DNA of 64,000 nucleotides from Alphaproteobacteria bacterium. Lineage in GTDB: Bacteria; Pseudomonadota; Alphaproteobacteria; MPNO01; VGEU01. Below the pieces are notes generated by a model. The model made no database searches and was not told the origin of the DNA. It saw only the letters and a list, made by a program, of their open reading frames with translations. Numbering within the stretch: the first letter of the stretch is position 1; every line of letters starts with the position of its first letter. Positions 10,349-58,879 of the stretch are shown piece after piece. The DNA lies in assembly GCA_016869145.1 (NCBI GenBank), contig VGEU01000003.1:664-64663 (forward strand), given 5' to 3'. The translations under genes and the position numbers were made by a program.

Positions 10349-11209
10349 ATGCGCGACGTCGAACGGACCATCCTCGCGGTCAAGGCGATCGGGACCGCGG
10401 TCGTCTGCGCGATCGGGCTGCTCGCCACCGCGGCGCACGCCGCGCCGCGCGCCGAGCTCTGGCCGCGTTGGGCGGCCCACGATCCGGCGGCGACCGCGAC
10501 GATCGATCACGCCGCCTGGGACCGCTTCCTCAAGGCCCATGTCGCGCCCGACGGCGACGGGCTCAACCGCCTCGGCTATGGCCGCATCCCGGCCGCCGAC
10601 CGCGCCACGCTCGGCGCCTATGTCGACCGGCTCGCCGCGACGCCGATCTCGCGCTTCTCGCGCGACGAGTAGCGCGCCTACTGGATCAATCTCTACAACG
10701 CGCTCACCGTGAAGGTCGTCCTCGACCACTATCCGGTGGCGAGCATCATGGACATCAAGATTTCGCCCGGCCTGTTCGCGCCGGGTCCATGGGGTCGGAA
10801 GCTGCTGCGCATCGAGGGCGAGGAGGTCTCGCTCGACGACATCGAGCACCGCATCCTGCGCCCGATCTGGCGCGATGCACGCCTCCATTACGCGGTGAAC
10901 TGCGCCTCCGTCGGCTGCCCCAATCTGCAACGGGACGCGTTCACCGCGGCGAACACGGAGACGCTCCTCGACCGCGGCGCCCGTGAGTATGTCAACAGCG
11001 GGCGGGGCGTCGTCGGCGCCGGGACCAATCTCTACGCCTCGAGCATCTACAAGTGGTTCCGCGAGGACTTCGACGACAGCGAGACTGGAGTTCTCGCCCA
11101 TCTCCGCCGCTACGCCGCGCCCGATCTCGCCCGCGCGCTCGAAGGCCGGCGCGACATTTCGGCCTATCAGTACGATTGGAAGCTCAATGACGCGCGCCCC
11201 GGTTCATGA
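10349..11209 (+). pseudogene. DUF547 secreted protein interrupted by in-frame TAG at 10670-10672
   Basis: Signal peptide, IDHAAWDRFL, SRDE*RAYWINLYNALT (family has Q here), DARLHYAVNCASVGCP, SSIYKWFREDF, YDWKLND; one frame throughout. Confidence 0.85.
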
Positions 11210-11917
11210 CCGCCCGGCGGCCGGCAACGCGCCGCGCGCTCTTCGCCGGTAGTAGAGTCGCGCGAGCGACGGCACGCCGAGATGGAAGAGCGCGTGGATG
11301 ACGAGCCAGCCCGCGACGATCGCCGCGGGCCGGCGACCCGCGAACTTGCGTGACGAGGTGACGACCGGCGGATTGTCGATGACGATCGTGCGACCGCGTC
11401 GCTCCATGCGGCGGACGAGGTCGTAGTCCTCCATCAGCGGGATCGGGCGGAGCCCGCCGATCGCCTCGAGCGCACCGCGGCGAATGAAGATCGTCGAGTC
11501 GCCATAGTAGAAGCCGTGGCGCCTGATCCAGGCATAGAACCGCTCGAGCCAACGATCGAACGGCGTCGTGCCGTCGAACAGGATCCGGAAATTTCCGCCG
11601 ATCAGGTCCGGGTCGGCGTCGAGCACTGCGGCGATCCGCGCGATCCCACCCGGCGGCAGAACCGTGTCGGCATGAAGGAGGACGAGCGCATCGCTGGTGC
11701 TCGCCGCGATCCCGGTGGCGATCTGGCGACCGCGGCCGCGTTCGATGCGGATCACGCGAGCACCGGTGGCTGTCGCCGCGGCGATGGTGCCGTCGCGGCT
11801 CCCGCCATCGACGACGATGACCTCGACCGGCCCGGTCACTGCCGCGAGCCGGGCAAGGAGGCCGGGAAGCCGCACCGCCTCGTCGAGGACCGGTACGATC
11901 ACCGAAAGCCGGATCAT
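11204..11917 (-). CDS. GT2 glycosyltransferase, TIGR04283-like
   Basis: SVIVPVLDE, VVDGGSRDGT, GRGRQ, LHADT, YGD, IPLMED, TSSRKF. Confidence 0.88.
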   Translation of the reverse strand: MIRLSVIVPVLDEAVRLPGLLARLAAVTGPVEVIVVDGGSRDGTIAAATATGARVIRIERGRGRQIATGIAASTSDALVLLHADTVLPPGGIARIAAVLDADPDLIGGNFRILFDGTTPFDRWLERFYAWIRRHGFYYGDSTIFIRRGALEAIGGLRPIPLMEDYDLVRRMERRGRTIVIDNPPVVTSSRKFAGRRPAAIVAGWLVIHALFHLGVPSLARLYYRRRARGALPAAGRS

Positions 11918-13225: not shown

Positions 13226-14362
13226 TCATTCGGCGGCGATCAGCCGGCCGATGATGATCCGCTGCACCTCGCTCGTTCCTTCGTAGATCTGGCAGACGCG
13301 CTGGTCGCGGTAGAGCCGCTCGACGAGCGTTCCCTCGAGAACGCCGATGCCGCCGTGGATCTGCACCGCCTCCGAGCACACGCGCTCGACCATCTCGGAG
13401 GCGAAGAGCTTCGCCATCGCGACCTCCTTCTGGTTCGGAAGGTCGGCATCGCGGAGCGCCGCGGCGTGGTGGGTCAGCGCCCGCGCCGCCTCGATCTCGG
13501 TCGCCATGTCGGCGAGCTTGAAGGCGATCGCCTGGTGGCCGATCAGCGTCGAGCCGAACGCCTCGCGCTTCCTCGCGTAGTCGCGTGCCGCCTCGTAGGC
13601 GGCCCGTGCGATGCCGATCGCCTGCGCCGCGATGCCGAGCCGACTGGTGCCGAGCCCGTCGAGCGCGATGCGATAGCCTTCACCGGGCTTGCCGAGCATC
13701 GCCGCGGCCGGCACGCGGCAGTTCGTGAACTCGATCCGCGCGGTGCCCGATGCCCGGATGCCGAGCTTGCGGTCGACCTCGGCGACGCGGTAACCGGGGG
13801 TCACGGTCGGCACGATGAAGCAGCTCATGCCCTTGGCGCCGGCGGCCGGGTTGGTGAGCGCGAAGACGAGGCAGAGCTCGGCATGCGAGCCCCCGGTGAT
13901 CAGCCATTTCGTCCCCTCGAGGACGTAATGATCGCCCTCGGCACGCGCGGTCATCGTGAGGCGCGCCGCATCGGACCCGGCCGCGGGCTCGGCGAGCGCG
14001 AAGCAGCCGAAGATCCGCCCGCGCGCGACCGGCTCGAGATGGCGCGTCCGTTGCTCGTCGGTCCCGAACTTGAGGAGCGGCCCGCACACCAGGGAGTTGT
14101 TGAGGCTGGTCACGACCGCAACCGAGGCATCGCCTGCGGCGAGCTCCTCGACGGCGAGTGCGAGCGAGAGCTGGTCGAGGCCCAGCCCGCCCCAACGGGT
14201 CGGCATATAGACCGCCATCAACCCGTCGCGGCCGAGGCGACGGAGCGTGTCGACCGGCAGGACGCCGGCCCGGTCGGCCGCGGCCGCATGCGGCAGGAGC
14301 TCGGCCGCGGCGAGCGCGCGGACCCGGTCGCGAAAGGCGGTCTGCTCGGGCGTCGGGATCAT
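13226..14362 (-). CDS. Acyl-CoA dehydrogenase
   Basis: FALAEPAAGSDA, GTKWLIT, KLGIRAS, REAFG, QIHGG, IYEGTSEVQR. Confidence 0.95.
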   Translation of the reverse strand: MIPTPEQTAFRDRVRALAAAELLPHAAAADRAGVLPVDTLRRLGRDGLMAVYMPTRWGGLGLDQLSLALAVEELAAGDASVAVVTSLNNSLVCGPLLKFGTDEQRTRHLEPVARGRIFGCFALAEPAAGSDAARLTMTARAEGDHYVLEGTKWLITGGSHAELCLVFALTNPAAGAKGMSCFIVPTVTPGYRVAEVDRKLGIRASGTARIEFTNCRVPAAAMLGKPGEGYRIALDGLGTSRLGIAAQAIGIARAAYEAARDYARKREAFGSTLIGHQAIAFKLADMATEIEAARALTHHAAALRDADLPNQKEVAMAKLFASEMVERVCSEAVQIHGGIGVLEGTLVERLYRDQRVCQIYEGTSEVQRIIIGRLIAAE

Positions 14363-14538
14363 GCGCGGGAACTCCGTTCGGTGGTGCGGCGACAGGATGT
14401 AACGCATTCGACACAACGCGAACAGCCAGGGCGTGCGAATGAAAATTGATCGCAACTGCAATGTGGGGCCTAATCGTCTCCGACCGCGCGGTAATGGCCT
14501 GTCATTGTCCTGCAACGTAGAACACCGGGTCTCACGCG

Positions 14539-15426
14539 ATGGAAATGCATCAGGTCCGGTATTTCCTCGCCGTGGCGCGCACGCTCAACTTCACGCGCGC
14601 CGCCGAGGAGTGCAATGTCTCGCAGCCCTCGCTCACGCGCGCCATACAGGCGCTCGAGGCCGAGCTCGGCGGCGAGTTGATCCGGCGCGAACGCACGCAC
14701 TCCCATCTCACCGAGCTCGGCACGCGCATGCTGCCGCTCCTCCAGCAATGCTACGACAGCGCGACGGCGGCGAAGACGGTCGCGCAGTCGGTGAAGCGCG
14801 GCGAGACCTCGCCGCTGTCGGTCGGCATCTCGTGCGCGGTGAGCGAGGCGGTGCTGACCGCTCCACTCCGCTCGCTCGTCGACCGGTTCAAAGGAGTCCA
14901 GCTGCGACTGAAGCGCGGCACGCCGGCCGAGATCTCGGCCTCCCTCAAGGCCGGCGAGATCGAGATCGCGGTCGCCGGGCCGCTCGCCGAAGACTGGGAC
15001 CGCGTCGACGCCTATCCTCTCTACGAGGAGCCGTTCGATCTTTTCGTCAGCCGCGAGCATCGGCTTGCCAAGAACGGCACCGTCGCGTTCGCCGATCTCC
15101 GCGATGAACGGCTTCTCGTCGACGTGAGCTGCGAGATGGCCGACACGGTGATGGCCGCGCTTAACGACATGGGCATCGACTGCGATGCAGCGCACCAGGT
15201 GACGACCGACCATGACCTGATGGCCCTGCTCGAGGCGAATATCGGCATCGCCGTGATCCCGGCGGGAACCATCTAGTCCAATCGCGTGGCGCGCGTCGGC
15301 CTCGACGGCCTCCGGCTCACCCGCCAGGTCTCGGCCTATGCCGTGGCGGGGCGGCGACGGTCGCCGGCTGTCGCGGCGTTCCTCAATCTCCTCCGGGCCG
15401 CAGCGTCGGCTAACGCGCAGCCCTGA
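14539..15426 (+). pseudogene. LysR-family regulator with in-frame TAG at 15274-15276
   Basis: HTH FTRAAEECNVSQPSLTRAI; reading through TAG gives SNRVARV...RRSPAVAAFLNLL, a normal LysR C-terminus, 295 codons total. Confidence 0.8.
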
Positions 15427-46295: not shown

Positions 46296-47432
46296 ATGGC
46301 AGGATTGGCCCGCCCGGAATTAGGTGCGCGGATCGTCGTCGCGATGTCGGGCGGCGTCGATTCGTCGGTGACGGCCGCGCTCCTCAAGGAGGCCGGCCAC
46401 GAGGTCATCGGCATAACGCTTCGGCTCCATGACGGCGCGGAGACGACGGCGCGAACCAAGACCTGTTGCGCCGGTCGCGACGTCTATGACGCGCGATGCG
46501 TCGCCGAGGCGCTCGACATCCCGCATTACGTGTTCGATTACGCCGATCGCTTTCGCCGCGACGTGATGGAGCCGTTCGCCGACGCCTACGTGGCGGGCGA
46601 GACGCCGGTGCCGTGTGTTCTCTGCAACCGGACGGTCAAGTTCCGCGACCTTCTCGAGGCGGCGCGCGATCTCGGCGCGGCGGCGCTCGCGACCGGGCAC
46701 TATGTCCGCCGCGTCGCGGGACCGGCCGGGGTGGAACTCCACCGCGGCGCCGACCCGGCGCGCGACCAGAGCTATTTCCTGTTCGCGACAACGCGCGCGG
46801 AGCTCGACTTCCTTCGCTTTCCCGTCGGCGGGCTCGCGAAGGACGAGGTCCGCGCGCACGCGCGGCGTTTCGCGTTGCCGGTCGCGGCCAAGCCCGACAG
46901 CCAGGACATCTGCTTCGTCCCCGATGGCGACTACGCCGCGCTCGTCGCCCGGCTGCGGCCGTCGGCGGCGGCGCCGGGCGAGATCGTTCATGTCGACGGC
47001 CGCGTGCTCGGCCGCCACGCGGGCATCATCCATTACACGGTCGGCCAGCGCCGCGGCCTCGGCATCGCCGCGGACGAGGCTCTCTACGTGGTGCGGCTCG
47101 AGCCGGCGGCGCGTCGCGTCGTGGTCGGCCCGCGCGCCGCGTTGGCGCGGACACGGATCGCGCTCCGCGACGTCAACTGGCTCGGCGTGGCCGATGGCCC
47201 GCCGGCGGCGGGCGCCGACGTCGCGGTGCGTATCCGCTCGACCCAGGCCGCGGTCGAGGCGCGCATCCGGCCGACGCGGGGCGGCGGCGCGATCGCCGAG
47301 CTCGCGGTGCCGGAGACCGCGGTCGCGCCCGGCCAGGCCTGCGTCTTCTATGACGGGGACCGCGTGCTCGGCGGCGGCTGGATTGCGCGGAGCGACACGG
47401 CCGCGATTCAGTTTGACCGCGACGGGTCCTAG
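46296..47432 (+). CDS. mnmA: tRNA 2-thiouridylase
   Basis: [51 protein letters not shown]. Confidence 0.98.
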
Positions 47433-47471: not shown

Positions 47472-47546
47472 GGCGGGGTAGCTCAGCGGTAGAGCAGGGG
47501 AATCATAATCCCTTGGTCGGGGGTTCAAATCCCTCCCCCGCTACCA
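47472..47546 (+). tRNA. tRNA-Met (CAT), elongator type
   Basis: GGCGGGG/CCCCGCT acceptor, GGGGA-AT-CAT-AA-TCCCT anticodon arm, GTTCAAATCC, CCA. Confidence 0.93.
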
Positions 47547-47610
47547 ACGTTACAGCACCGGCGCGCGTCCTTTGGCCGAAGCGTCCCTTTATCGGCGCGC
47601 ATCGCAGGGT

Positions 47611-48459
47611 TCAGTTGCTCGAAGGCCGCCAGCTCTGGAAATAGCCTTCGACACGCTGCAGGACCGCGGAGATGCCAATCCCGGCGCCGGCGACGATCAC
47701 GACGCAGGCGAATAGCAGGTCGGTCTTGAACATCATGCCGGCCTGGCCGACGAGATAGCCGATGCCCTTGCTGCCGGCGAAGAACTCGCCGACGACGACG
47801 CCGATCAGACCATGCGCGAGCCCTTGGCGCAGACCGACGATGATGAACGGAACCGTCGAGGGCAGCACGACGGTGCGGAACAAGTCCCACTGCGTCGCGC
47901 GGAACGATCGCGCGGCGCCGAGCAGCTCATCGTCGGTCGTGCGCACGCCGGCCATCGCGTTGAGCAGGATCGGAAAGAACGCCGACAGGAATACGATGAA
48001 GGCCTTCGAGGCGAAGCCGAGACCGAACCAGATCACGATCAGCGGCACGAACACGATGCGCGGCGTCGAGTAGAGGCCGTTGATGAACGGATCCAGTATC
48101 AGGCGCGGCAGGCGATACCAGCCGAGAACGATGCCGAGAGGAATCGCGACGAGCGCGGCGATGCTGAACCCTGTTGCGAAGTTTTGGGCAGAGAAGGCGA
48201 GGTGCTCGAGGATGTCGCCCGAGCCGAACAGGCCGTCCCAGAGCCGCGCGAAGATCGCAGAAGGGCCGCTGAAGAAGAGGGGATCGATCCGGCCCGCGGA
48301 CCATGCGGCCTGCCAGATCGCCAGCACGAAGACGACCGACAAGCTGCCGACAATCGCGCCTTCGTTGCGCTGGTAGAAGCTCTCGGTCGGCCGCACGGGC
48401 TCCGCGCCCGCTGCGCCCGCGTCTGCCGGAATGACGGAGACCTGACCATCGGCGTTCAT
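47611..48459 (-). CDS. NitT/TauT ABC transporter permease
   Basis: [22 protein letters not shown]-like loop, VVVGEFF. Confidence 0.93.
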
Positions 48460-49289
48460 GCGCGAGCCTCTCCGGTTGTGGCTTCGGCGGTGCGCACCAG
48501 GCCGGCGCGCGTACCCTCCTCCTCGATCAAGGCCCAGATGCCATCGACCAGGGTGAGGAAGTCCGGCCGGCGCTTCAGCGCCAGCGTTCGAGGCCGCTCG
48601 AACGGCACCGCGAACTCCTGCTTCAGTCGTCCCGGGCGCGTGCCGAACACGATCACGCGGTCGGAGAGGAACGCGGCTTCGTCGATCTGGTGGGTGACGA
48701 AAAGCACGGTCTTGCCCGCGTGCGACCAGATGCGCAGCAACTCGGCCTGCATGAACTCGCGCGTCTGAGCATCGAGAGCGGCGAACGGCTCGTCCATCAG
48801 CAGAATCTCCGGATCGGTGGCGAGAGCGCGCGCGAGGTTGACGCGCTGCTGCATGCCGCCCGACAGCTCGGCCGGATAGTGCCGCTCGAACCCCGCGAGC
48901 CCGACCAACCTGATGTGATGCGCCGCCCGATCCTCGATCTCGGACTTGTCGAACTTGCGCTGCAGTTCCATCCCGTAGGTGACGTTCGCGAGCGTCGTGC
49001 GCCAAGGCAAGAGACGCGGTTGCTGGAACACCGTCGCACGATCGCGTCCCGGACCGTCGATCTGCTTGCCGGCGATCTCGATGCGTCCGGCGTCGGGTGC
49101 AAGAAGTCCGGTCGCGATATTGAGGAACGTTGTCTTGCCGCAGCCCGACGGCCCGACGATGCAGACGAACTCGCCCTCCGCGATCGACAGCGTGACATTC
49201 GTCAGCGCGGGGATCGGGTCCGGCTCCCCCTTCATCCAGAAATATTTGGAGATGCCTGTGGCGACGAGCTTGTTGGGGCGGGAACCCAT
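48456..49289 (-). CDS. NitT/TauT ABC transporter ATP-binding protein
   Basis: [31 protein letters not shown]. Confidence 0.95.
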
Positions 49290-49370
49290 CGGTTTGCCTC
49301 TTTGGCTCAGTTCCTGGCAGCGTTCCGAGCGGAACAGCACCTATCGCCAGGACACCGATCGGGCCGACAC

Positions 49371-50414
49371 CTAGCGGAAGGACTCGGCGCGCTTCGCAGC
49401 GATCTCTTGCTTGATCCCCGGGCCGAACACCTGCTCGAAGAAGCCCTGGTCGGCGAGCCGGTCGATCATGCTCTGATCGATCGCGCGCCGGAAATCGAAG
49501 GTCTCAAGCTCCGGCGTCTCCGCCTTGCCGCGTTGGACAATCCCAGACAAAGCGGTCTTCGGCACATACGGCACCCGTTCGAAGACCTGTGCCTTGATCG
49601 TTTCGTCATAGAGGCGCTCGAGTGTCTTGTCGTCGGTCTTCAGTTGCTTCTTCAGCACGCCCAGCACGAACGGCTTGTCGTCGTAGATGCGCTTGACCGC
49701 CTCGATATGCGATTTCAGGAACGCCTCGACGAGTTGCGGTGTCTCGTTCAACACCCGGCGGCGGAACATGTAGCTGGTCGCGATCGGGATCTGACGGTAG
49801 TCCTGCAGTTTGGCGAGTACGTTGAAGCCTTCCTCCTCGAGGAGGTAGTAGTCCGGCGAGGTCAGCATGGCCGCGTCCGCGAGACCGTTGCGCAGCGACA
49901 GCGCCCGTTGCGGGGGTGCACCGGCCGCAATCCACTGCATGCCTTTCGTATCGACCTTCAAGGCTTCGAGCACGCCGAGCGCGTAGAAGTAGGGTGGATC
50001 TCCGATACGGCCGACAGCGATGCGTTTCCGCTCGAGCGATTTGGCATCCGTGATGGCCTTGGTGCTGATCAGTGCGAACTGGCCGACGAGGAGGGGGCTC
50101 CCGATGATGACCACCTGATCGCCCCGAATCGCGGCGAGCATCGCGGTGTCAAGGCCGAGATTGTGCGTCAGCGCCTCGCCCGAGATCACCGCCGCGGGAC
50201 CTGCGGGATGCAGTGCGAAATCGACCGTCGCCGTGAGGCCGTTCTTCTCGAAGAGTCCGGCTTCCTTGGCGATCCAGAGCGGCCAGGTCGTGCTCGACGG
50301 CGCGGGATAGACGATCTTCACGCTCGTCATTCTGGATTGGGCGATGGCGGCATTCGGCCAAGCGACCAGCGTGGAAAGCAGCGCTGCTGTCATCATGCAC
50401 GAGACGCGCAACAC
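49371..50414 (-). CDS. NitT/TauT (SsuA/THI5-like) substrate-binding protein
   Basis: GTG after AGGAGG, signal peptide, PLWIAKEAGLFEKNGL. Confidence 0.88.
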   Translation of the reverse strand: MLRVSCMMTAALLSTLVAWPNAAIAQSRMTSVKIVYPAPSSTTWPLWIAKEAGLFEKNGLTATVDFALHPAGPAAVISGEALTHNLGLDTAMLAAIRGDQVVIIGSPLLVGQFALISTKAITDAKSLERKRIAVGRIGDPPYFYALGVLEALKVDTKGMQWIAAGAPPQRALSLRNGLADAAMLTSPDYYLLEEEGFNVLAKLQDYRQIPIATSYMFRRRVLNETPQLVEAFLKSHIEAVKRIYDDKPFVLGVLKKQLKTDDKTLERLYDETIKAQVFERVPYVPKTALSGIVQRGKAETPELETFDFRRAIDQSMIDRLADQGFFEQVFGPGIKQEIAAKRAESFR

Positions 50415-50586
50415 TGGATCCTCCTGTTCGCTTCTTTGGATCGCTCCATCATCGCCGGTTGCCGGCGCTACGGACAACAGTGCCGGCATTGCCTTGACAC
50501 TGATCTAACACGCAAACAGCACGCATACAATATGATATTAAGTTTGACCAGAAGTTTCCGACAGGATGCACGGGGAGCGCTGCGCC

Positions 50587-51603
50587 ATGAAGATCATCGA
50601 CTGCCACGCACATGTGAGTGCGCCAGCCGAGTTGTGGGCTTTCAAGGCTTCGCTCGTCTCGCATCGCGGCGCGCACGGGAGGGGAGGGCTCAAGTTCTCC
50701 GACGAAGAGATCCGCGCCGCTGTCGAGAAGAAGCGCTTCGAGGGCGGCGACAAGAGCCACATGGCCTTTCTCGACGAGGTCGGCACGCACGTGCAGTGCG
50801 TCTCGCCACGCCCGTTTCAGATGATGCATTCTGAGAAGCCGGCGAAAATCGTGCAGTGGCTCCACGAGGAGGTCAACAACGTCATCCACCGCCAGACGCT
50901 GCTCTACCCCGATCGCTTTGTCGGCATCGCCGGCCTGCCGCAACCGGCTGGCGAGCCGCTGGGGATGGCGATCGCGGAACTCGAGCGGTGCGTGAAGCTC
51001 GGCTTCAAGGGCTGCCTACTCAATCCCGACCCTTACGAGAACTCCGGCATCAAAGCGCCGGCGATGGGTGAGCGCTACTGGTATCCGCTCTACGAGAAGC
51101 TCTGTGAGCTCGATGTGCCCGCACACATCCACGCGACCGGCTCGCACTGCCCGGAGCGCGAACCCTATACGCTCCACTTCATCAACGAGGAGACGACCGC
51201 AACCTATGGCCTGGTCAGCTCGGATGTGTTTAAGGACTTCCCGACGCTCAAGATCGTGATGAGCCACGGCGGCGGTGCGATCCCGTTCCAGCTCGGCCGG
51301 TTCCAGGCAAGCTCGGCGCGCAAGCCCGGCGGCCAGCTGTTCGCCGATGCCATGCGGAACCTCTACTACGACACGGTGCTCTACACTGAGGAGGCGCTGC
51401 GCCTGCTCGTGAAGGTCGTCGGTGCCGATCGCTGCCTGTTCGGTGCGGAGTGTCCAGGCGTCGGCTCGGCGCGCAACCCGGAAACGGGCCGGACCTACGA
51501 CGACATCATGCCGCTCATCCGCGACGCCTCTTGGCTGAGTGCCGAGGACAAGGCCGGCATTCTCGCCGACAACGCGCGCAAAGTGTTCAAGCTCACGCAG
51601 TAG
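50587..51603 (+). CDS. ligY: LigY-like Zn amidohydrolase (meta-cleavage product C-C hydrolase)
   Basis: IIDCHAHVSAP.ELWA.KASL..HRG.HGRGG, SPRPFQMM, LLNPDPYEN, PAHIHATGS, PY.LHFINEET, SHGGGAIP, FGAECPGVG match Sphingobium LigY as recalled. Confidence 0.8.
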   Translation: MKIIDCHAHVSAPAELWAFKASLVSHRGAHGRGGLKFSDEEIRAAVEKKRFEGGDKSHMAFLDEVGTHVQCVSPRPFQMMHSEKPAKIVQWLHEEVNNVIHRQTLLYPDRFVGIAGLPQPAGEPLGMAIAELERCVKLGFKGCLLNPDPYENSGIKAPAMGERYWYPLYEKLCELDVPAHIHATGSHCPEREPYTLHFINEETTATYGLVSSDVFKDFPTLKIVMSHGGGAIPFQLGRFQASSARKPGGQLFADAMRNLYYDTVLYTEEALRLLVKVVGADRCLFGAECPGVGSARNPETGRTYDDIMPLIRDASWLSAEDKAGILADNARKVFKLTQ

Positions 51604-51620
51604 ACGGGAAGAACACGACG

Positions 51621-52634
51621 ATGGCGAGGATCGTCCTGGCGATGGCCACCACGCACGGCCCGCAACTCCATACCACAGTGGAGCAGTGGGCGTTGCGTGT
51701 GAAGGCGGATCAGGCGCGCAAGCATCCCTATCGCCGGGAGATGCGGAGCTTCGATGAGCTGGTGGCCATGCGGAGCGGCGAAGGGCTCGAGGCGAAGTCG
51801 AGCCCGACAGGGATGGCCGAATCCCACCGTCGCTGCCAGGCCGGCATGCGGGTGCTCGCCGCCAAATGGGACGAGATCAAGCCCGATATCGCGGTCGTGC
51901 TCGGCAACGACCAGAACGAGATGTTCGAGACCGAGGAGCTGAACCCGGCGTTCTTCGTCTTTTGCGGCGAGAAGATCCCGAACTATCTCCAGTCCGATGC
52001 GCGACGCAAAGAGCTGCCGCCGGGTGTTGCGGAAGCCGAGCATGGCCACGCGACCGAGACCTATACCGAATACGATGGCGTGCCCGATCTCGCCCGGCAC
52101 ATCGTGGACACGTTGATCGCGCGTGATTTCGATGTCGCGGTCTCGTCGAGATGGCCGCGCAACGCCCGGAACGGGGCCGGCCACGCGTTCGGGCACATCT
52201 ACCGCCAGGTCATGCGCGATAAAGTCGTGCCGAACGTGCCTATTCTGCAGAACACGTTCTTCCCGCCGAACCAGCCGTCGGCGCAGCGCGCCTATGACTT
52301 CGGGCGTGCGGTCAAGCAGGCGATCGACAGCTGGGCCGACGACAAGACGGTCGCCGTATTCGGCTCGGGCGGCATGAGCCACTTCGTCATCGACGAACAG
52401 TTCGACCGCGCGTTCGTCGATGCGCTGGCCCGGAAGGACAAGGACTACCTCGCCTCGATCCCGCTTTCCGATCTGCAGTCGGGCACATCGGAGCTCAAAT
52501 CCTGGATCACGCTGGCGGGCGTACTGAAAGATGTCGACTGCACGATGCACGAGATCGACTACGTGCCCTGCTACCGTTCGGTCGCGGGCACAGGAACGGC
52601 CAACGGCTTCTATTGGTGGGAGATGACGCGATGA
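51621..52634 (+). CDS. ligZ: LigZ/DesZ-like type II (LigB-fold) extradiol dioxygenase
   Basis: TTHGP, GNDQ, NTFFPPNQP, FGSGGMSHFVIDE, LQSGTSELK, PCYRS.AGTGTANGF; closer to LigZ than LigB as recalled. Confidence 0.72.
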   Translation: MARIVLAMATTHGPQLHTTVEQWALRVKADQARKHPYRREMRSFDELVAMRSGEGLEAKSSPTGMAESHRRCQAGMRVLAAKWDEIKPDIAVVLGNDQNEMFETEELNPAFFVFCGEKIPNYLQSDARRKELPPGVAEAEHGHATETYTEYDGVPDLARHIVDTLIARDFDVAVSSRWPRNARNGAGHAFGHIYRQVMRDKVVPNVPILQNTFFPPNQPSAQRAYDFGRAVKQAIDSWADDKTVAVFGSGGMSHFVIDEQFDRAFVDALARKDKDYLASIPLSDLQSGTSELKSWITLAGVLKDVDCTMHEIDYVPCYRSVAGTGTANGFYWWEMTR

Positions 52635-53296
52635 GGGGACCTCCGGCAGATCTCGTCGCGCGCTTGCGCAAGCTGGATTGTTGTGCGGTCTCCGACGCTC
52701 TCGATCAGTTGAAGCTCGGCGGCGTCGTGACGGGGCTGTTCACCCAGGGTTCTGGGACAGGCCGCATCTCCGGCCGCGTGATCACCGTCAAGCTCGGCGT
52801 CGGCCAGCCGAAGGATGCACCCCCCAAGCATCTCTGCACAACCGCGGTCGAGATCGGTGGTCCCGACGACGTCATCGTCATCGAGCAGCGTTCCGGCGTG
52901 GAAGCGGGTAGCTGGGGCGGCCTCCTCTCCCTCGGCGCGAAGACAAAGGGTATTGCCGGCGTCGTAGCCCATGGCCCCGTGCGCGATATCGATCAGGCGA
53001 TCGAGATGGGATTTCCGATTTTCGCGAGCGGCTACACCTCGCGCACGGCGCGCGGCCGGATCGTCGAGATCGGGACCAACGTCGCGATCGCGATCGACGA
53101 TGTCGCGGTCTCCCCGGCGGACTACGTGGTCGCCGATCGGAGTGCGGTGATCTTCATTGCGGCGGCGAACATCAGGGAGGTGCTCGAGACGGCCGAGCGG
53201 ATCACCGCCAAGGAGGATGCCATGGCCAAAGCGATTCTGGCCGGTACGCCGATCGGAACGGTGATGGGCGCAAGCTATGAGCACATGTTGAAGTAG
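52631..53296 (+). CDS. RraA/HMG-CHA aldolase (LigK-like) family protein
   Basis: AVSDALD, WGGLLS, GPVRD, GFPIF, VVAD. Confidence 0.88.
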   Translation: MRGPPADLVARLRKLDCCAVSDALDQLKLGGVVTGLFTQGSGTGRISGRVITVKLGVGQPKDAPPKHLCTTAVEIGGPDDVIVIEQRSGVEAGSWGGLLSLGAKTKGIAGVVAHGPVRDIDQAIEMGFPIFASGYTSRTARGRIVEIGTNVAIAIDDVAVSPADYVVADRSAVIFIAAANIREVLETAERITAKEDAMAKAILAGTPIGTVMGASYEHMLK

Positions 53297-53344
53297 GCGC
53301 CCTCCTCGTCCGCATCAACCTTTCAGAGCCCAACTGTCGACCAC

Positions 53345-54229
53345 ATGGCAAGAACCAAAGAACTCGACCCAGCGTCCCGCGTCACCAGACGATCGAAGGC
53401 GGCTCCCGCGTCCCGTGCCATTGCGCAACCAGTCGGGTGGCGGAGCGCGCGTAGCGAGCCGGCGGGATCGAGGATCGAACGCCAGATCAAGACCGCAATT
53501 CTGACCGGGCAGTGCCGCGCGGGAGACTTTCTGGGATCGGAGAACGAGCTTGCCGCCAGCATGGGCGTGAGCCGACTTCCTGTTCGTGAGGCGGTCAGCC
53601 GGCTGCAGGCGCTCGGGCTCGTCGAAGTCAAGACAGGCGCGGGCGGCGGCGTACGGGTCGCCACGGGAAAGCCCGATTACATCGCCGAGCTTCTGGCGAT
53701 ACAGCTCGTACTCGATCGCCTCGACGCAGAGGAGGTCCTGGTCGCCCAGCGGATCGTCGAGGTCGCCGCCGTCGGCATGGCCGCCCGGAATGCGACCGCC
53801 GAAGCGCTGGCGCTGATGCGCGGCGCACTGGATGAGGTCGAGCGCCTTGTCGAGCAACCCGAATTGTTCACGGCTGCCTCCATGGCCTTTCATGCGGCGA
53901 TCGGCGGCGCCTCGCAGAACCGGTTCCTGTCGATCATGATGCAGGCCATCGCGATCACGCTCGAGCAGGTCAATGCGCCGGATACGACCGTCGAAGTCGC
54001 GCGCATGGTGGCGGGGCGCCACCGCAAACTCTTGCACGCCATTGAGGCCCGCGATGAGGCGGCGAGCGTCGCGCTGATCGCGCATCATCTTGAGCGCGTC
54101 CATCGCCATGTCCTGGCGCGCCTCGGAGGAAATGCGGCCTCGACGCACGATCCACGTCGCTCCGATAAGGCAAAGACTCCCGTCGTGGTGAGGCGGGAGA
54201 ACGGACGAATGCGGAGAACCGACACGTAA
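53345..54229 (+). CDS. GntR/FadR-family transcriptional regulator
   Basis: LGSENELAASMGVSRLPVREAVSRL HTH; FCD domain FHAAI..ASQN, HRKL. Confidence 0.92.
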   Translation: MARTKELDPASRVTRRSKAAPASRAIAQPVGWRSARSEPAGSRIERQIKTAILTGQCRAGDFLGSENELAASMGVSRLPVREAVSRLQALGLVEVKTGAGGGVRVATGKPDYIAELLAIQLVLDRLDAEEVLVAQRIVEVAAVGMAARNATAEALALMRGALDEVERLVEQPELFTAASMAFHAAIGGASQNRFLSIMMQAIAITLEQVNAPDTTVEVARMVAGRHRKLLHAIEARDEAASVALIAHHLERVHRHVLARLGGNAASTHDPRRSDKAKTPVVVRRENGRMRRTDT

Positions 54230-54351
54230 GGAAGGTTCGGCCGATCCTGAAGGACCTACGCGTCGCCAAGGCGACTGCCGGTGTGCGATGACTAAGAGCG
54301 CCGGCAGCGCCGTTGAGCGATGCGCGCGCGTGAGAATGGAGACCCGATTTC

Positions 54352-55524
54352 ATGCGAACGCAGGTGGGAATTGTCGGGGCCGGGCCGGCCGGGCTCTTGC
54401 TCGGCAGAATGCTGCAGAACCTCGGCATCGACGCGGTGGTGTTGGAGAGCAGGTCCCGCGATTACGTCTTGGCGCGGATCAGGGCGGGCGTGCTCGAGCA
54501 GGGTACGGTCGACACGCTGATCGCGCAGGGCATCGGCGATCGGTTGCGGCGTCAGGGTATGGTGCACGAGAACATGCAGATCCGTTGGGCGGGTCGGCGG
54601 AACGATTTCACTGTCGAGGACGAGAAGGGACGGCGTCTGACGACCTATGGTCAGGCCGAAATCGTCAAGGACCTGATCGAACGGCGTGAGGCGGACAATT
54701 TGCCCCTCTTGTTCTCTGCGCCCGCGCAGCGAATCGAGAATGTCGAGACGCGGCCGCGTATCCATTTCACGCACGAGGGGGCTGAGAGGACGCTCGATTG
54801 CGATTTCGTGGCAGGCTGCGACGGATTTCATGGCGTCTGCCGGAAGCACATTCCGAACGCCGACGATCGCACCTTTCTCAAGACCTATCCCTATGGCTGG
54901 CTCGGCATTCTGGCCGAGGCCGCACCGCACGCCGAGATCCGCGGGTTCGCTCACAGTACGCGGGGATTTGCCGTCGCCTCGGCCCGGTCGCCGAAGATCG
55001 GTCGGCTCTACCTCCAGGTCGATCGAAACGAGGACATCGAACGGTGGAGCGACGAGGCGATCTGGGACGAGCTCGACCGACGCTTCGAGGATGGGTCCGG
55101 CCACCGCCTCAATCGTGGTCGGATCCTGAAAAAGGATCTCGCGCCGCTGCGTGCCTTCGTGTGCGAGGCCATGCAGCATGGCCGGATCTTCCTCGCCGGT
55201 GACGCCGCACATATCGTGCCGCCCTCCGGCGCGAAGGGGCTTAATTCGGCAGTCGGCGACGTCAGGGTTCTGGCGGAGGGCTTGCGCCGGCATTTCGCGG
55301 GGACGGGTTCCGATCTGCTCGATCACTATGCCGAGATCTGCCTGAGGCGGATCTGGGCGACCGTGCATTGGTCGTGTCTCCTGACCGATACACTCCACAT
55401 CGCGCCCAACCAGACAGGCTTCGACCTTCAGATGCAGTATGCGACACTGAACCACTGGGCGAAGACAGAGTTGGGGCGTCAGCACTTCTGCAATGCAATG
55501 CTTGGGTTGCCCTATGAGGTCTGA
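54352..55524 (+). CDS. pobA: 4-hydroxybenzoate 3-monooxygenase homologue with altered active site
   Basis: GAGPAG, RIRAGVLEQ, GCDGFHG, YPYGWLG, GDAAHIVPPSGAKGLN, GLPY. Confidence 0.88.
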   Translation: MRTQVGIVGAGPAGLLLGRMLQNLGIDAVVLESRSRDYVLARIRAGVLEQGTVDTLIAQGIGDRLRRQGMVHENMQIRWAGRRNDFTVEDEKGRRLTTYGQAEIVKDLIERREADNLPLLFSAPAQRIENVETRPRIHFTHEGAERTLDCDFVAGCDGFHGVCRKHIPNADDRTFLKTYPYGWLGILAEAAPHAEIRGFAHSTRGFAVASARSPKIGRLYLQVDRNEDIERWSDEAIWDELDRRFEDGSGHRLNRGRILKKDLAPLRAFVCEAMQHGRIFLAGDAAHIVPPSGAKGLNSAVGDVRVLAEGLRRHFAGTGSDLLDHYAEICLRRIWATVHWSCLLTDTLHIAPNQTGFDLQMQYATLNHWAKTELGRQHFCNAMLGLPYEV

Positions 55525-55621
55525 GGATCGGATGATCGCCACCCGGGCAACTCGCGCCAGCCCTCGTCTCCGAAGCCTGCGTGACCATGGCGATTGAGCA
55601 ACCCGAATTGGATCGATGAGA

Positions 55622-56572
55622 ATGGGCAAGATCGACATTTCGAATGCGACGCGCCCGACGCGGGCGCGGATCGGCGGCAGCGACAGAGATCGTGCAGCGC
55701 GCTTCAGCAAGCGCATGCCGCCTGCCGCCAAGCGCAGCGTGTTCCTCCGCAACAATGTCCTGCTGCCCATCAGGACGCCGCCGGTCAATCCGGAGCGCAC
55801 TGAAATTCCCGACCCGCCGCAGGCCACCGAAGTGATCAAGCAACTGGTCCGCGACATGGGCGTCGATGACGTCGGCATCGCCGAGATCGATCGCCGCCTG
55901 CTCTTCACGCAGGCGGGCGAGCTTCAGCACACGAGGGCCATCGTCTACGGAATCGCGATGTCGTTCGACACCATGGCCGATATCGGTCCACGCTCGCAGG
56001 ACGAGGTTCATCGCGTCTATCGCAAGCTCGACGAGACCGGCGTCCGCCTCGCCCAGCATATCGCCGCCTACGGCTACAATGCCTCGATGCAGCCGAACGA
56101 GGGCGATGTGCCGCTGGTCGCCATGGCGCAAATGGCAGGCCTCGGCGAACTGGGCAAGCACGGCTCGCTGATCTCGCCGAAGATGGGTGCATCATTCCGG
56201 CTCGGCGCGGTGACGACCGACATGCCGCTCCTCGCCGACGGACCGAAGGACTTCGGCTTCGATGAGGTGTGCACGAAATGCGGCGTATGCACCCGGTTCT
56301 GCCCGGGCGATGCGATCAACCCGGATAAGCAGGTCGTCAATGGGATCGAGCGGTGGCACGTCGACACGCCCGCCTGCGAGCCCTATTTCCACAAGCTCTA
56401 TGGCTGCAAGATCTGCCTGATGGTGTGCCCGCTCAATAGCCGTGGCATGTTCGGCCAAGAATTCAGGGCGGCGTCGAAGGTGCTCGTCCAGACCAAGGAC
56501 GCCAAAGGAATGTTGCAGCTCATCGAGGCGCGCACCGACATGAACTACGAGGACTTCAGCGATCTCGAGTGA
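55622..56572 (+). CDS. Small reductive dehalogenase-like cobalamin/2x[4Fe-4S] protein
   Basis: GVDDVGI, AGLGELGKHG.LISP..G...RL..VTTDMPL..D.PKDFG, CTKCGVCTRFCP, C-x9-CKICLMVCP; no Tat signal. Confidence 0.8.
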   Translation: MGKIDISNATRPTRARIGGSDRDRAARFSKRMPPAAKRSVFLRNNVLLPIRTPPVNPERTEIPDPPQATEVIKQLVRDMGVDDVGIAEIDRRLLFTQAGELQHTRAIVYGIAMSFDTMADIGPRSQDEVHRVYRKLDETGVRLAQHIAAYGYNASMQPNEGDVPLVAMAQMAGLGELGKHGSLISPKMGASFRLGAVTTDMPLLADGPKDFGFDEVCTKCGVCTRFCPGDAINPDKQVVNGIERWHVDTPACEPYFHKLYGCKICLMVCPLNSRGMFGQEFRAASKVLVQTKDAKGMLQLIEARTDMNYEDFSDLE

Positions 56573-56622
56573 ACGACCCTCACTTGATCGGAGCGCCCGG
56601 CGACCGGAAGTGATCGGCCCTG

Positions 56623-56834
56623 ACAAAGGGAGAACTGGCGCACCCGGTGCAGCGCCAGGCCGTGGCGCCGCGGGATGCGCTGCACCGACGAGACGCTCAT
56701 CCCGCTCACTGGCTGTGGCCATTGCTTGAGCGGTCCCGTGGGTCGCCTTGCCGGGCGGATCGCTCGCCGTCAACACGACCACCCGCGCGATCACCGCCTG
56801 GTCCAGCGGCGGCTTGCGCGACGACGCGCGTCTC
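56623..56834 (-). mobile_element. IS630-family transposase remnant
   Basis: SSRKPPLDQAVIARVVVLTASDPPGKATHGTAQAMA / SGMSVSSVQRIPRRHGLALHRVRQF matches the IS630 HTH region; frameshifted, conserved Trps lost. Confidence 0.78.
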
Positions 56835-56843
56835 GCCGCTGAC

Positions 56844-57635
56844 CTAGCGCGCGAGGAACGCCTCGACCGCCTCGGCGACCGCCTGCGGCTGGTCGAAGTC
56901 CGCCATGTGGCCGGCGCCCGCGATCAGCGTGATCTTCACCTCGCCCGCGATCGCCTCGGCGAAGCGCGTGGCGTAGGCGCGCGACATCACGCGGTCGTCG
57001 TCGCCCCAGATGATCAGGGTCGGGCAGGTGATCCGCGGCAGGCGGCGGCGTACCCGCGTATCGCCGAGCGGCCACAGATAGCGCGCGGCGGCGTTGCGCG
57101 TGCGCTGCTGGGCGATGTCCCACTCGACGACCTCGTTCGCGTCGTTGCTGTCGGCGCGGACATAGGCCTCGACCTCGGCCGGACGGTTGGACACCAGCGG
57201 CGCGTAGGCGCCCGGCCGCTGCGCGAACACGTCCGAGATCGGGTCGCTCGGCTCGAACAGCCCGAGCGGGCCGATCAGCACGAGGCGGCGCACCGAGCGC
57301 GGCCACAGCGCCGCGACCTCGGCGGCGAGCGCGCCGCCCGCCGATGCGCCGATCAGATCGGCGCCGTCGAGCCCGGCGCCGAACCACGCGTCGCCGCTCG
57401 CGAGCGCCCAGTCGAGATGGCTGTCGAGATCCTCCCAATCGGCCCCGCCCGGCGTGCCGGGGAGCGAGGGGGCGACGACGCGCCGGGTGCGCGCGAGCGC
57501 ATCGAGGAACGGCAGCCAACGCGGCAGTCCGAGGAGGCCCGCGAAATAGCCGACCCGCGGACCCGACCCCTTCTCCCAGACACGGAAACGACCGCCGCCC
57601 GGCGCCGTGCCCCGACGCTCGTCCGGCGCGCTCAT
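56844..57635 (-). CDS. Alpha/beta fold hydrolase
   Basis: GASAGG nucleophile elbow, IWGDDD, GAGH. Confidence 0.88.
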   Translation of the reverse strand: MSAPDERRGTAPGGGRFRVWEKGSGPRVGYFAGLLGLPRWLPFLDALARTRRVVAPSLPGTPGGADWEDLDSHLDWALASGDAWFGAGLDGADLIGASAGGALAAEVAALWPRSVRRLVLIGPLGLFEPSDPISDVFAQRPGAYAPLVSNRPAEVEAYVRADSNDANEVVEWDIAQQRTRNAAARYLWPLGDTRVRRRLPRITCPTLIIWGDDDRVMSRAYATRFAEAIAGEVKITLIAGAGHMADFDQPQAVAEAVEAFLAR

Positions 57636-58879
57636 GCCGGGATCGCCATCGGTGCCACGCGCTCGGCCGCGGTCATCGGCTTCGGCCACCAATGGTCTTC
57701 CCACTTGTCGTCGAACAGGCCGTGGATCTGCGGCATGACTTTCTCGGCGAAGAGCCGCGTGTTGTAGTTGGTGACCTCCTTCGACATGTTGCCGAACTGC
57801 AGCAGCAGCATCAGGTGGCCGACATTGAGATTGACCGCCACCTCGCGGAGCTGATCGGCGACCTCGTCGGGGCTGCCGATGATGACGTGTCCCTTCTCGA
57901 GGATGTTGTCCATCTCGGCATTGGCCGGGCGCGCGAGCGTCGCTTGAGCGGCCGCCTTCACGATCTGCGAATCGAGCCTCGCCCGCACCGTCGCCTCGCT
58001 GGTGTAGCCGGGCGGCTGGGTGAACTTGGGGTCGAGATGGAGGCAGCGGTTGTAGAAATAGTTGGCCGGTTCCGCATAGAGCTTCACGGCCTCCGCGCGC
58101 GTCTCGGCGACGCCGACCGCCTGCAGGAAGCCGGCATGATAGGGATTGGGCTCGACCCCCATTGCCTTCATCTCGTCCCAGAACCCCTTCATGACCTGGA
58201 TTCCGGACTTGTAGCCCCAGTACGACAGATAGGCGTAAACGAAGTCGTTCTCGGCGCACATGCGCCAGGTCTCGACCGAGCCCGAGCCCGGCACCCAGAC
58301 CGGCGGGCGCGGCTTCTGGATCGGACGCGGCCAGATGTTGACGTAGCGGTACTGGTTGAAGCGGCCGTTATAGGCGAAGGGCTTCGGCTCCTCCCACGCG
58401 CGCTTGATCAGATCGATCGCCTCGTAATAGCGCGGGCGCAACAGCGACGGGTTCTGGCTGTAGGCGTAGCAGGTGTCCATCGGCGTGCCGACCGGAAAGC
58501 CCGCGATCATCCGCCCGCCGGAGATGACGTCGATCATCGCGAACTCCTCGGCGACCCGGATCGGCGGGTTGTAGAGCGCGAGCGAGTTGCCCATGACGCA
58601 GAGCATCGTGTCCTTGGTGCGCCGCGCGAGCGAGGAGGCGATCAGGTTGGGCGACGGCATCAGCCCGTAGCCGTTGGAGTGGTGCTCGTTGACGCAGATG
58701 GCGTCGAAGCCCTGCGCGCCCGCGTATTCGAGCTCGTCCATGAAGTCGTTGTACATGACGTGCGCGCGCGCCGGGTCGAACAGGCTCGAGTCGACCTCAA
58801 CCCAGACGCCGGGGTGCTTCTCCTTGAAATCCTCAGGAAGCTCCGTATAGGGCATCAGGTGGAACCAGCAGATCTTCAT
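57632..58879 (-). CDS. LLM-class flavin-dependent monooxygenase
   Basis: FHLMPY, VNEHH, PIRVAEEFAMIDVISGGR, PRPIQKPRPP. Confidence 0.92.
   Translation of the reverse strand: MKICWFHLMPYTELPEDFKEKHPGVWVEVDSSLFDPARAHVMYNDFMDELEYAGAQGFDAICVNEHHSNGYGLMPSPNLIASSLARRTKDTMLCVMGNSLALYNPPIRVAEEFAMIDVISGGRMIAGFPVGTPMDTCYAYSQNPSLLRPRYYEAIDLIKRAWEEPKPFAYNGRFNQYRYVNIWPRPIQKPRPPVWVPGSGSVETWRMCAENDFVYAYLSYWGYKSGIQVMKGFWDEMKAMGVEPNPYHAGFLQAVGVAETRAEAVKLYAEPANYFYNRCLHLDPKFTQPPGYTSEATVRARLDSQIVKAAAQATLARPANAEMDNILEKGHVIIGSPDEVADQLREVAVNLNVGHLMLLLQFGNMSKEVTNYNTRLFAEKVMPQIHGLFDDKWEDHWWPKPMTAAERVAPMAIPA

Follow-up and report, generated by a model that had tools for sequence, protein, structure and literature searches.

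Results

We describe a nine-gene island in an alphaproteobacterial genome (GenBank assembly GCA_016869145.1, contig VGEU01000003.1) that probably breaks down a substituted 4-hydroxybenzoate. The island lies on this contig (C3) of a 3.93-Mb assembly of 247 contigs, rated 99% complete; the window below is the whole stretch of 64,000 nucleotides that was analysed. Three minus-strand genes of an importer diverge from six plus-strand catabolic and regulatory genes, which encode, in this order, a LigY-type hydrolase, a LigB-fold dioxygenase, an RraA-fold protein, a GntR/FCD regulator, a variant of the flavin hydroxylase PobA and a short protein of the RdhA type. Pfam and NCBIfam give the content, order and strands of all nine genes as they stood in the original prediction, which had been made from the sequence alone; its tRNA-Met border is likewise found by ARAGORN and Rfam.

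The first plus-strand gene (50566..51603) encodes a LigY-type zinc amidohydrolase (Amidohydro_2, PF04909, 154 bits), a predicted C-C hydrolase of meta-cleavage products. The protein matches the solved LigY structures (PDB 5vn5/6e6i) with 470 bits (E 3e-140), the LigJ hydratases with 181-192 bits and decarboxylases of the same fold with at most 80 bits. The alignment to LigY has H6, H8, R72, H177, H179, Y190, H223, R234 and E282 identical and F at the position of LigY Y230; the aligned positions (H6, H8, R72, H177 and others) are presumably the metal-binding and catalytic residues. Judged by sequence, the hydrolase belongs with LigY and not with LigJ, as had been proposed.

The dioxygenase gene (51621..52634, plus strand; PF02900, 70 bits) codes for a LigB-fold extradiol enzyme of a subfamily labelled LigZ/DesZ. 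The prediction that it is not LigB agrees with its place outside the LigB, DesB/GalA and MhpB equivalogs, far under the cut-offs (NF009912, 63 bits against 837; NF009904, 58 against 412), with its scores of 54 bits to the LigB structure and 49 to that of DesB, and with the names of its relatives: several JGI sequences of 70-81% identity are labelled 'OH-DDVA oxygenase/3-O-methylgallate 3,4-dioxygenase'. The family has 1722 database matches, the 120 listed all being at least 68% identical; an Atlas search returned generic LigB/DODA names only. Conserved residues are H12, D97-Q98, H188, H254 and E291. The first His and the Glu-region motif of class III dioxygenases are kept in the island enzyme, and the conserved His188 is found only in the LigZ-like subfamily, not in the LigB copies on contigs C31 and C50.

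The hydroxylase gene (54352..55524, plus strand; FAD_binding_3, PF01494, 254 bits) belongs to a PobA clade with R199/G200/F201/S294/M385. Its product fails the PobA equivalog TIGR02360 (441.7 bits, cut-off 538.7) and passes the subfamily model NF006091 (497 against 351). Mapped on the Pseudomonas enzyme by alignment to the PDB, it keeps S212, R214, R220, Y222, P293 and N300, so the carboxylate clamp Ser212/Arg214/Tyr222 is intact, and it carries the changes L199R, I200G, Y201F, L210V, T294S and Y385M. With Phe201 and Met385, the Tyr201-Tyr385 proton relay that activates the 4-hydroxyl is gone. The changes sit at the pocket beside the distal ortho position, which bears out the claim of a remodelled PobA.

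An alignment of the 119 closest database clusters has 99 with Gly200 and without Tyr385; within these 99, Arg199 occurs in 96, Phe201 in 91 and Tyr385 in none. The other 20 clusters, all at 53% identity or less, have the canonical L/V-[VI]-Y...T...Y. Since 99 of 119 relatives share the signature, the variant residues are not decay. The genome of a related locus, L005, holds the variant and two further PobA copies, both with Y201/Y385 (one read through one internal TAG); the presence of these canonical-type copies argues that the variant is a specialised paralogue. If X is the substituent of a 3-X-4-hydroxybenzoate substrate, Arg199 suggests that X is anionic or strongly polar, for example the carboxylate of 4-hydroxyisophthalate, or a phenolate or carboxylate on a second ring. 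No close relative of the variant PobA was found in a sample of 400 genomes of the class (best 50% identity).

The linkage of these genes was studied with the hydrolase as the query of a GTDB genome scan. Relatives are encoded in 357 GTDB stretches, and 79 loci were examined, SYK-6 not being among them. Neighbours were counted by clustering open reading frames (ORFs) at 30% identity or more and 60% coverage or more, the clusters being named by Pfam; the counts include loci cut by contig ends and clusters judged to be antisense shadows. An RraA-fold gene accompanies LigY in 40 of the 79 loci, a LigZ-like gene in 34, a Rieske oxygenase with the LigXa_C domain in 31 and a 527-residue FAD hydroxylase in 16; another 16 loci have none of the four. 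A close PobA variant is present in one, L005 (74% identity). As LigXa-type, large FAD and PobA-type enzymes alternate before the same module, the catechol-forming step appears to be interchangeable, and the earlier claim of a flavin hydroxylase substituting for LigX has good support.

The variant PobA was found beside LigY, LigZ-like and RraA genes in all five loci read, namely the window, L005, the metagenome contigs L110 and L111, and L172, which is plasmid pAA01 of Aminobacter aminovorans KCTC 2477 (record 154535-172221). They come from a lake metagenome-assembled genome (MAG), from a MAG of the Hyphomicrobiaceae, from two metagenome contigs and from a cultured Aminobacter. L110 and L111 are the only two of 23 metagenome loci with the R-G-F motif, and in both ligY-ligZ-rraA lies directly upstream of pobA; none of the 20 metagenome loci with the motif L-[VI]-Y has ligY, ligZ or rraA neighbours, and one locus, L128, whose motif is unreadable, is counted in neither group. 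Co-occurrence of the five enzymes in other genomes had been proposed originally as a test: it holds for PobA, LigY, LigZ and RraA, and no RdhA-like gene was detected in the examined parts of the other four loci.

Six Aminobacter plasmids carry the variant PobA at 58.5-58.7% identity. The order on pAA01 is FCD regulator, aldehyde dehydrogenase, amidohydrolase, small Rieske protein, FAD oxidoreductase, LigY-like, LigZ-like, RraA, RraA, aldolase for CHA/HMG (4-carboxy-4-hydroxy-2-oxoadipate/4-hydroxy-4-methyl-2-oxoglutarate), PobA variant, thiamine pyrophosphate (TPP) enzyme, VanB-type reductase, Rieske oxygenase and IclR regulator. The clusters of L172 and L110 are thus longer, with an extra aldehyde dehydrogenase, an Amidohydro_2 protein of 417-424 residues, the small Rieske protein, an FAD oxidoreductase of 553 residues, the TPP enzyme and a VanA/VanB-like pair, which hints that a larger parent compound is funnelled into the same core. 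A UbiD-type decarboxylase near the cluster in L005 and the second Amidohydro_2 gene in L110 and L172 are in keeping with an aromatic acid being released. The TPP enzyme has benzoylformate decarboxylases and a 2-hydroxyacyl-CoA lyase as best PDB matches (NCBIfam PRK08266); its identification as an oxalyl-CoA decarboxylase, which would have hinted that oxalate is released, was considered and is not supported by these matches.

The last gene of the island (55616..56572), which follows pobA on the plus strand at a distance of 92 bases, encodes a protein of 318 residues of the RdhA/QueG superfamily, with the cobalamin and two [4Fe-4S] features of the RdhA type. It scores 112 bits with TIGR02486, under the cut-off of 160, has no PF13486 domain and aligns to NpRdhA residues 299-586 (E 4e-31). 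Its AlphaFold2 model (predicted local distance difference test score, pLDDT, 89.8) has a TM-score normalised on the query of 0.75-0.77 to NpRdhA, 0.65-0.66 to PceA and the reductive dehalogenase (RDH) complex and 0.44-0.50 to QueG; as modelled, the fold is nearer to RdhA than to QueG. Tyr135 aligns with NpRdhA Tyr426 and Arg195 with NpRdhA Lys488, which we take to be the catalytic pair of a Tyr and a Lys/Arg; neither varies in 59 relatives, each is conserved at 95% or more in 121, and both Cys motifs are invariant. Opposite NpRdhA Arg552 the alignment has Phe.

The small size had been noted originally and is a property of the family. Its members form at least 120 clusters, and those listed are 56-95% identical, mostly of 312-340 residues, align from residue 3 to 312 and bear source names from 'QueG' to 'ferredoxin'; the 318-residue protein is a real, conserved member of a short family. 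Neither a twin-arginine signal nor an RdhB partner is evident in or near it, by eye only. Full-length relatives of 57-59% identity stand beside LigY in five loci of marine Rhodospirillaceae MAGs (L043, L051, L056, L069, L077), head to head with a regulator-ligY-rraA unit. The genome has three further RdhA-like matches at 30-33% identity (C9:6725-7579, C43:18684-19361, C122:5628-5954), and such matches occur in 21 of the 400 sampled class genomes, five at most per genome; no close relative of the short protein is in that sample (best 43% identity). CobN was not found in the genome. In the marine locus L056, a gene with a caspase domain (Peptidase_C14; 13682-15214, minus strand) was seen directly downstream of a LigXa-like gene.

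The RraA-fold gene (52613..53296, plus strand; PF03737, 98.6 bits) overlaps the end of the dioxygenase gene (52613 against 52634) and codes for a protein of what we call the RraA-1 type, a putative dienoate aldolase or hydratase. Being the only PF03737 gene in the genome, it may have a role in the 4,5-cleavage pathway as well. In the Aminobacter cluster, the third RraA gene passes the LigK models (357 and 346 bits); the window protein is 49% identical to the first Aminobacter RraA and 31% to this true LigK. As a separate observation, in locus L050 a gene of the fumarylacetoacetate-hydrolase family (10947-11894) lies between ligY and ligZ and is a candidate dienoate hydratase; a relative of 59% identity in the genome under study (C29:12542-13753, minus strand) adjoins a gene for a ring-hydroxylating oxygenase alpha subunit.

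The regulator gene (53345..54229, plus strand; PF00392 and PF07729) is of the GntR/FCD (FadR) type, and FCD regulators at 34-43% identity occur in several related loci. The importer, of the ATP-binding cassette (ABC) class, is encoded on the minus strand. Its permease (47611..48459; BPD_transp_1, PF00528, 89 bits) is of the NitT/TauT type, SsuC/TauC-like; it resembles NF040733/TauC/SsuC and scores under the NCBIfam cut-offs. The ATPase (48456..49340; PF00005, 111 bits; NF008421, 233 bits) is of the taurine/nitrate/sulfonate type. The periplasmic binding protein (49371..50489) is a divergent member of the NMT1/SsuA family with weak matches (22 bits to NMT1_2, 48.5 bits to TIGR01728), and its true start is likely inside the ORF, at a signal-peptide-like stretch. 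This type of importer recurs with the LigY module: permease relatives of 51-53% identity adjoin LigY/LigZ/RraA in L011, L041 and L053, where ATPase relatives of 61-65% are also present, and binding-protein relatives of 37-39% occur in these three loci and in L110.

Over 48-56 kb the guanine-plus-cytosine (GC) fraction is 0.63-0.65, most of the window having 0.68-0.72, and the lower-GC stretch extends from the tRNA-Met to about 56.8 kb. The tRNA-Met gene (CAT anticodon; 47472..47546, plus strand; Rfam RF00005, 68.3 bits) forms the left border. The IS630 scar claimed for the right border is weakly supported: a 74-residue minus-strand reading at 56545-56769 has weak tblastn matches (E 0.03-0.8) in 33 plasmid records, nine of the ten listed falling under 'IS630 family transposase' annotations, and has no Pfam match at E of 1 or less. 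We regard it as a possible relic of the N-terminus of an IS630-family transposase (56620..56740, minus strand). A search for a direct repeat of the tRNA end flanking the island found no att-like repeat, and a promoter and terminator scan of the island gave nothing above shuffled sequences. The island was probably acquired by horizontal transfer as a catabolic unit. It is present in 17 public runs, all of DNA and labelled lake or freshwater metagenomes; no RNA run is listed.

Two observations concern the flanks. ARAGORN calls a tRNA-Arg(CCG) at 47273-47343 (minus strand), where Rfam finds none at its gathering score; the call falls in the 3' part of a 378-residue ORF (46296-47432) that looks, by eye, like a tRNA 2-thiouridylase, and it is probably a false positive. 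The first gene beyond the island (56844-58259, minus strand) has an alpha/beta-hydrolase fold, the domain covering residues 248-464 of the ORF, and its GC returns to the flank level.

The other aromatic genes of this genome lie apart from the island. The window had been said to lack LigA, LigC and LigI, the last two of which were not looked for in the window itself; genome-wide, LigA matches occur only on C31, which has LigA and LigB, and on C50, which has a fused LigB-LigA-type gene. On the window's contig no LigB-family match other than the island dioxygenase occurs, and another LigB-fold gene is at C94:9111-9797. Contig C42 (L163:362-3450) carries LigJ-like, LigI/4-sulfomuconolactone-hydrolase-like and PrpF genes together, and many LigXa-like Rieske genes are found elsewhere in the genome.

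Discussion

The family membership of the proteins is shown, as is the conservation of catalytic residues and of gene linkage, and the finding is real and non-random. We believe, with a probability of about 0.6, that the island is a self-contained acquired catabolic unit with a hydroxylate-cleave-hydrolyse route for a 3-X-4-hydroxybenzoate. The NitT/TauT-type importer would take the compound up. The variant PobA, with its carboxylate clamp retained and a presumably widened, Arg-lined pocket at the former Tyr201/Tyr385, would hydroxylate the free ortho carbon to give 5-X-protocatechuate; the LigZ-type dioxygenase would open the ring next to X; and the LigY-type zinc hydrolase would cut the C-C bond, with X-COOH and 4-carboxy-2-hydroxypentadienoate as products. 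The RraA-fold protein would help to take the dienoate to pyruvate, the hydration being due to another enzyme or to one of these proteins, and the GntR/FCD protein would regulate the unit. The short RdhA-type protein would most likely strip an ortho halogen from a halogenated substrate and so enable its hydroxylation. We infer each chemical step and the nature of X.

The hydroxylase step is made plausible by known enzymes. The available part of PMC10770758 names positions 199, 201, 294 and 385 as determinants in PobA enzymes, engineered and natural, that accept 3,4-dihydroxybenzoate, and describes natural clade F PobAs without Tyr201/Tyr385 that hydroxylate protocatechuate at C5. According to the accessible text of PMC12016517, Pigmentiphaga PHBH1/2 turn 3-bromo-4-hydroxybenzoate into bromoprotocatechuate, and an extradiol enzyme acts after them.

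As to X, a second aryl ring and a carboxyl group (4-hydroxyisophthalate) are the leading candidates, on an equal footing and each improbable taken singly; some other substituent is rather less probable, and a methoxy or hydroxy group, like a halogen, is lower still. The biaryl substrate of the original prediction is a guess, and a halogen is suggested by the RdhA-like neighbour only. A more far-reaching reading is worth stating, though we think it unlikely as a whole: the widespread Arg199/Gly200/Phe201/Met385 clade would be the entry enzyme of a LigX-independent route for ortho-substituted 4-hydroxybenzoates (H-type 5-5' lignin biaryls or 4-hydroxyisophthalate), the route would be coupled here to a minimal cobalamin reductive dehalogenase of about 320 residues, and RraA-1 would be the missing carboxy-dienoate enzyme of the pathway for 5,5'-dehydrodivanillate (DDVA). 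If all this were true, reductive dehalogenation and oxidative meta-cleavage would be combined by an aerobic bacterium within a single operon, for the use of natural halogenated phenolic acids.

Several points weigh against the proposed route. The placement of the dioxygenase in the LigZ subfamily comes from the JGI labels of its relatives and not from the LigZ sequence itself. The family has G-[ND]-D-Q (G-N-D-Q in the island enzyme, kept in at least 95% of 75 members) where the LigB copies on C31 and C50 have A-N-D-H, a motif that is presumably the site of the second iron-binding His of the class III His-His-Glu set; the metal site of the subfamily would thus be unusual. LigY-like genes of 71-75% identity have other surroundings in L008, L010, L012 and L013 (Beijerinckiaceae and Rhizobiales MAGs): they sit between sulfatase and Leu/Ile/Val-type ABC transporter genes, with molybdopterin hydroxylase, PrpD/MmgE and acyl-CoA dehydrogenase genes nearby and neither LigZ nor RraA (the Pfam families were read on L012 and carried to the other three through cluster membership). 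Such contexts suggest a second, different use of the LigY-type hydrolase, and it follows that sequence identity does not fix the substrate. The RraA-fold protein, through which the dienoate had been predicted to reach pyruvate by aldol cleavage, is not a bona fide LigK: it is under both cut-offs (NF006731, 68.8 bits against 179; TIGR02798, 62.2 against 304.5), and with its 31% identity to the Aminobacter LigK that candidate identity was rejected. These scores and the separate true LigK of Aminobacter make the aldolase role of RraA-1 uncertain; it may be the aldolase here, or it may be the hydratase, for which there is no other dedicated gene among the nine. The variant is moreover the only PobA-type gene in the 99%-complete genome, which leaves room for a role with plain 4-hydroxybenzoate, and the RdhA-like gene did not turn up in the stretches examined of the four related loci.

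The same families also make up a gallate or 3-O-methylgallate route, in which PobA would C5-hydroxylate protocatechuate or vanillate, the LigB-fold enzyme would be a gallate/3-O-methylgallate dioxygenase, the LigY-like protein a LigJ-type hydratase or an esterase, and RraA would split the hydrated product, no C-C hydrolysis taking place. The gallate pathway set has just such a dioxygenase, an Amidohydro_2 protein and an RraA-fold protein, 3-O-methylgallate dioxygenase is part of the JGI label of the dioxygenase relatives, the clade F protocatechuate 5-hydroxylases likewise lack Tyr201/Tyr385 (PMC10770758, in the part available), and, as far as the accessible source goes, positions 294 and 385 are altered in an engineered gallate-forming PobA. 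We nevertheless hold this route to be unlikely: the clade F cavity Val199/Trp201/Met210/Phe385, as given in that same part, is here Arg199/Phe201/Val210/Met385, the 8weq chain scores lowest of the PobA matches that the PDB search listed, the hydrolase is at 470 bits to LigY against 192 to LigJ, and separate LigJ-like, LigI-like and PrpF genes on C42 and the fused LigB-LigA-type gene on C50 are at hand. Less likely again is that the variant PobA acts after LigY, turning the released acid (e.g., 4-hydroxyisophthalate) into protocatechuate by oxidative decarboxylation/hydroxylation, and so replaces LigW rather than LigX, the catechol step on the first ring being encoded elsewhere. Arg199 beside the ortho substituent would suit a second carboxylate; the flavoprotein HipH is reported to convert 4-hydroxyisophthalate to protocatechuate (available part of PMC13599478, citing Chao et al. 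2016); many LigXa-like Rieske genes could supply the first step, and enzymes that trim aromatic acids travel with the cluster (UbiD-type in L005, the second Amidohydro_2 in L110 and L172). However, the minimal sets of the window and L111 have no other catechol-forming enzyme in the stretch seen, and the variant PobA is mostly absent where a LigXa-type or FAD hydroxylase is present, as expected of alternatives for the same step.

A scheme that needs no extra enzymes is plain 4-hydroxybenzoate with a hydrolytic 4,5-branch: PobA would form protocatechuate, the LigB-fold enzyme the semialdehyde, and the LigY-like protein formate and the carboxy-dienoate that leads to pyruvate. That the island has the only PobA-type and the only RraA-family gene of the genome, with LigA/LigB, LigJ-like, LigI-like and PrpF elsewhere, speaks for it; but both tyrosines that activate 4-hydroxybenzoate are replaced across the clade (Tyr385 in 0/99, Phe201 in 91/99), the L005 genome retains two canonical-type copies beside the variant, and the island is a lower-GC insertion rather than core metabolism. 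We consider it very improbable. A question of another kind is whether the RdhA-like gene belongs to the pathway at all. It falls only somewhat short of an even chance that it does not, being an edge passenger or a B12/Fe-S reductase of non-dehalogenation chemistry: it was not found in the stretches examined of the other four variant-PobA loci, its product is under the RDH cut-off and without PF13486 in a superfamily that includes the non-dehalogenase QueG, three more paralogues are in the genome and up to five matches in other Alphaproteobacteria, and no other island gene separates it from the possible IS relic. On the other side are its closeness to pobA (92 bases downstream, same strand), the 57-59% relatives that adjoin the LigY cluster in the five marine loci, the invariance of the catalytic Tyr and Arg of RdhA enzymes, and the best structural match, which is the catabolic NpRdhA acting on bromo-4-hydroxybenzoates.

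To our knowledge, the chemistry of LigZ and LigY has been described in a single strain, and for a single substrate, the lignin biphenyl DDVA. The LigY hydrolase module is seen here to be widespread (357 GTDB stretches) and plugged into at least three different catechol-forming enzymes. Once identified, the substrate of the variant PobA would give a function to about 100 database clusters labelled '4-hydroxybenzoate 3-monooxygenase' and reveal a further route for aromatic acids, lignin-derived or halogenated, that does without a demethylase; the variant could also supply hydroxylases with which to make gallate-type compounds and substituted catechols. For the short RdhA-type family, with at least 120 clusters and no assigned function, there is now a concrete metabolic context. 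Since cultured Aminobacter strains carry the cluster, these questions are directly testable.

Comparison with known systems

The nearest known system is the DDVA pathway of SYK-6 (Sphingobium/Parasphingobium lignivorans; LigXacd, LigZ, LigY, LigW and HMG aldolase), with which the island shares a LigY-type hydrolase beside a LigZ/DesZ-labelled LigB-fold dioxygenase, and an RraA-fold gene for the dienoate branch. The island differs in having a PobA-family flavin hydroxylase and no LigXa-type Rieske demethylase, in the lack of LigW and the added RdhA-type gene, and in its GntR/FCD regulator, the SYK-6 one being the MarR-type DdvR. Uptake is by an ABC importer in the island and by DdvK/DdvT in SYK-6 (PMC6874591, available part). 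The hydratase of the SYK-6 pathway is entered as 'NI' in Table 2 of PMC12673573, in the portion accessible. The protocatechuate 4,5-cleavage and gallate pathways (LigAB/DesB, LigI, LigU, LigJ, LigK) share the LigB, Amidohydro_2 and RraA folds; the island proteins are far under the LigB, gallate dioxygenase and LigK cut-offs and nearer to LigY than to LigJ, and the 4,5-cleavage genes of this genome (LigA/LigB, LigJ-like, LigI-like, PrpF) are separate, on other contigs.

Pigmentiphaga kullae H8, likened here by description, has the clusters phbh1-pcaA-pcaB-orf404 and phbh2-pcaB2-pcaA2, in which a PobA-family enzyme turns a 3-substituted 4-hydroxybenzoate into a 5-substituted protocatechuate that is cleaved by an extradiol enzyme of the same operon; according to the available part of PMC12016517, these clusters have a two-subunit pcaA/pcaB and no LigY-type hydrolase, RraA-fold gene or RdhA. 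XaPobA of clade F accepts a 3-substituted 4-hydroxybenzoate and resembles the island enzyme in keeping the carboxylate clamp without Tyr201/Tyr385; its pocket V199/W201/M210/F385 is hydrophobic, whereas R199/G200/F201/V210/M385 here includes a charged Arg. The physiological role of clade F is stated as not known in the accessible text of PMC10770758, and the island clade sits in a cleavage operon. The RdhA-like protein shares with NpRdhA/BhbA and the Roseobacter debrominase Ros_A3X954 the cobalamin-domain core, two [4Fe-4S] motifs and the aligned Tyr/basic pair; with 318 residues it has under half the length of NpRdhA and lacks the N-terminal pseudo-domain and a reductase fusion, and its cluster motifs come about 65 residues earlier than in Ros_A3X954, as far as the available source describes the latter.

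The original prediction knew of no described pathway with this combination. We found no such paper: the open-access literature that was searched yielded none on LigY/LigZ-type genes coupled to a PobA-family hydroxylase and no characterisation of the R199/G200 PobA clade or of an RdhA of about 320 residues. The claim has to be narrowed in its parts, as related PobAs (PMC10770758, PMC12016517) and small debrominases of halophenols that lack the TAT (twin-arginine translocation) signal (PMC13101508) are described in the available portions of these papers. The building blocks and the logic of the pathway are known, and their combination in the island is a new variant of a known pathway type.

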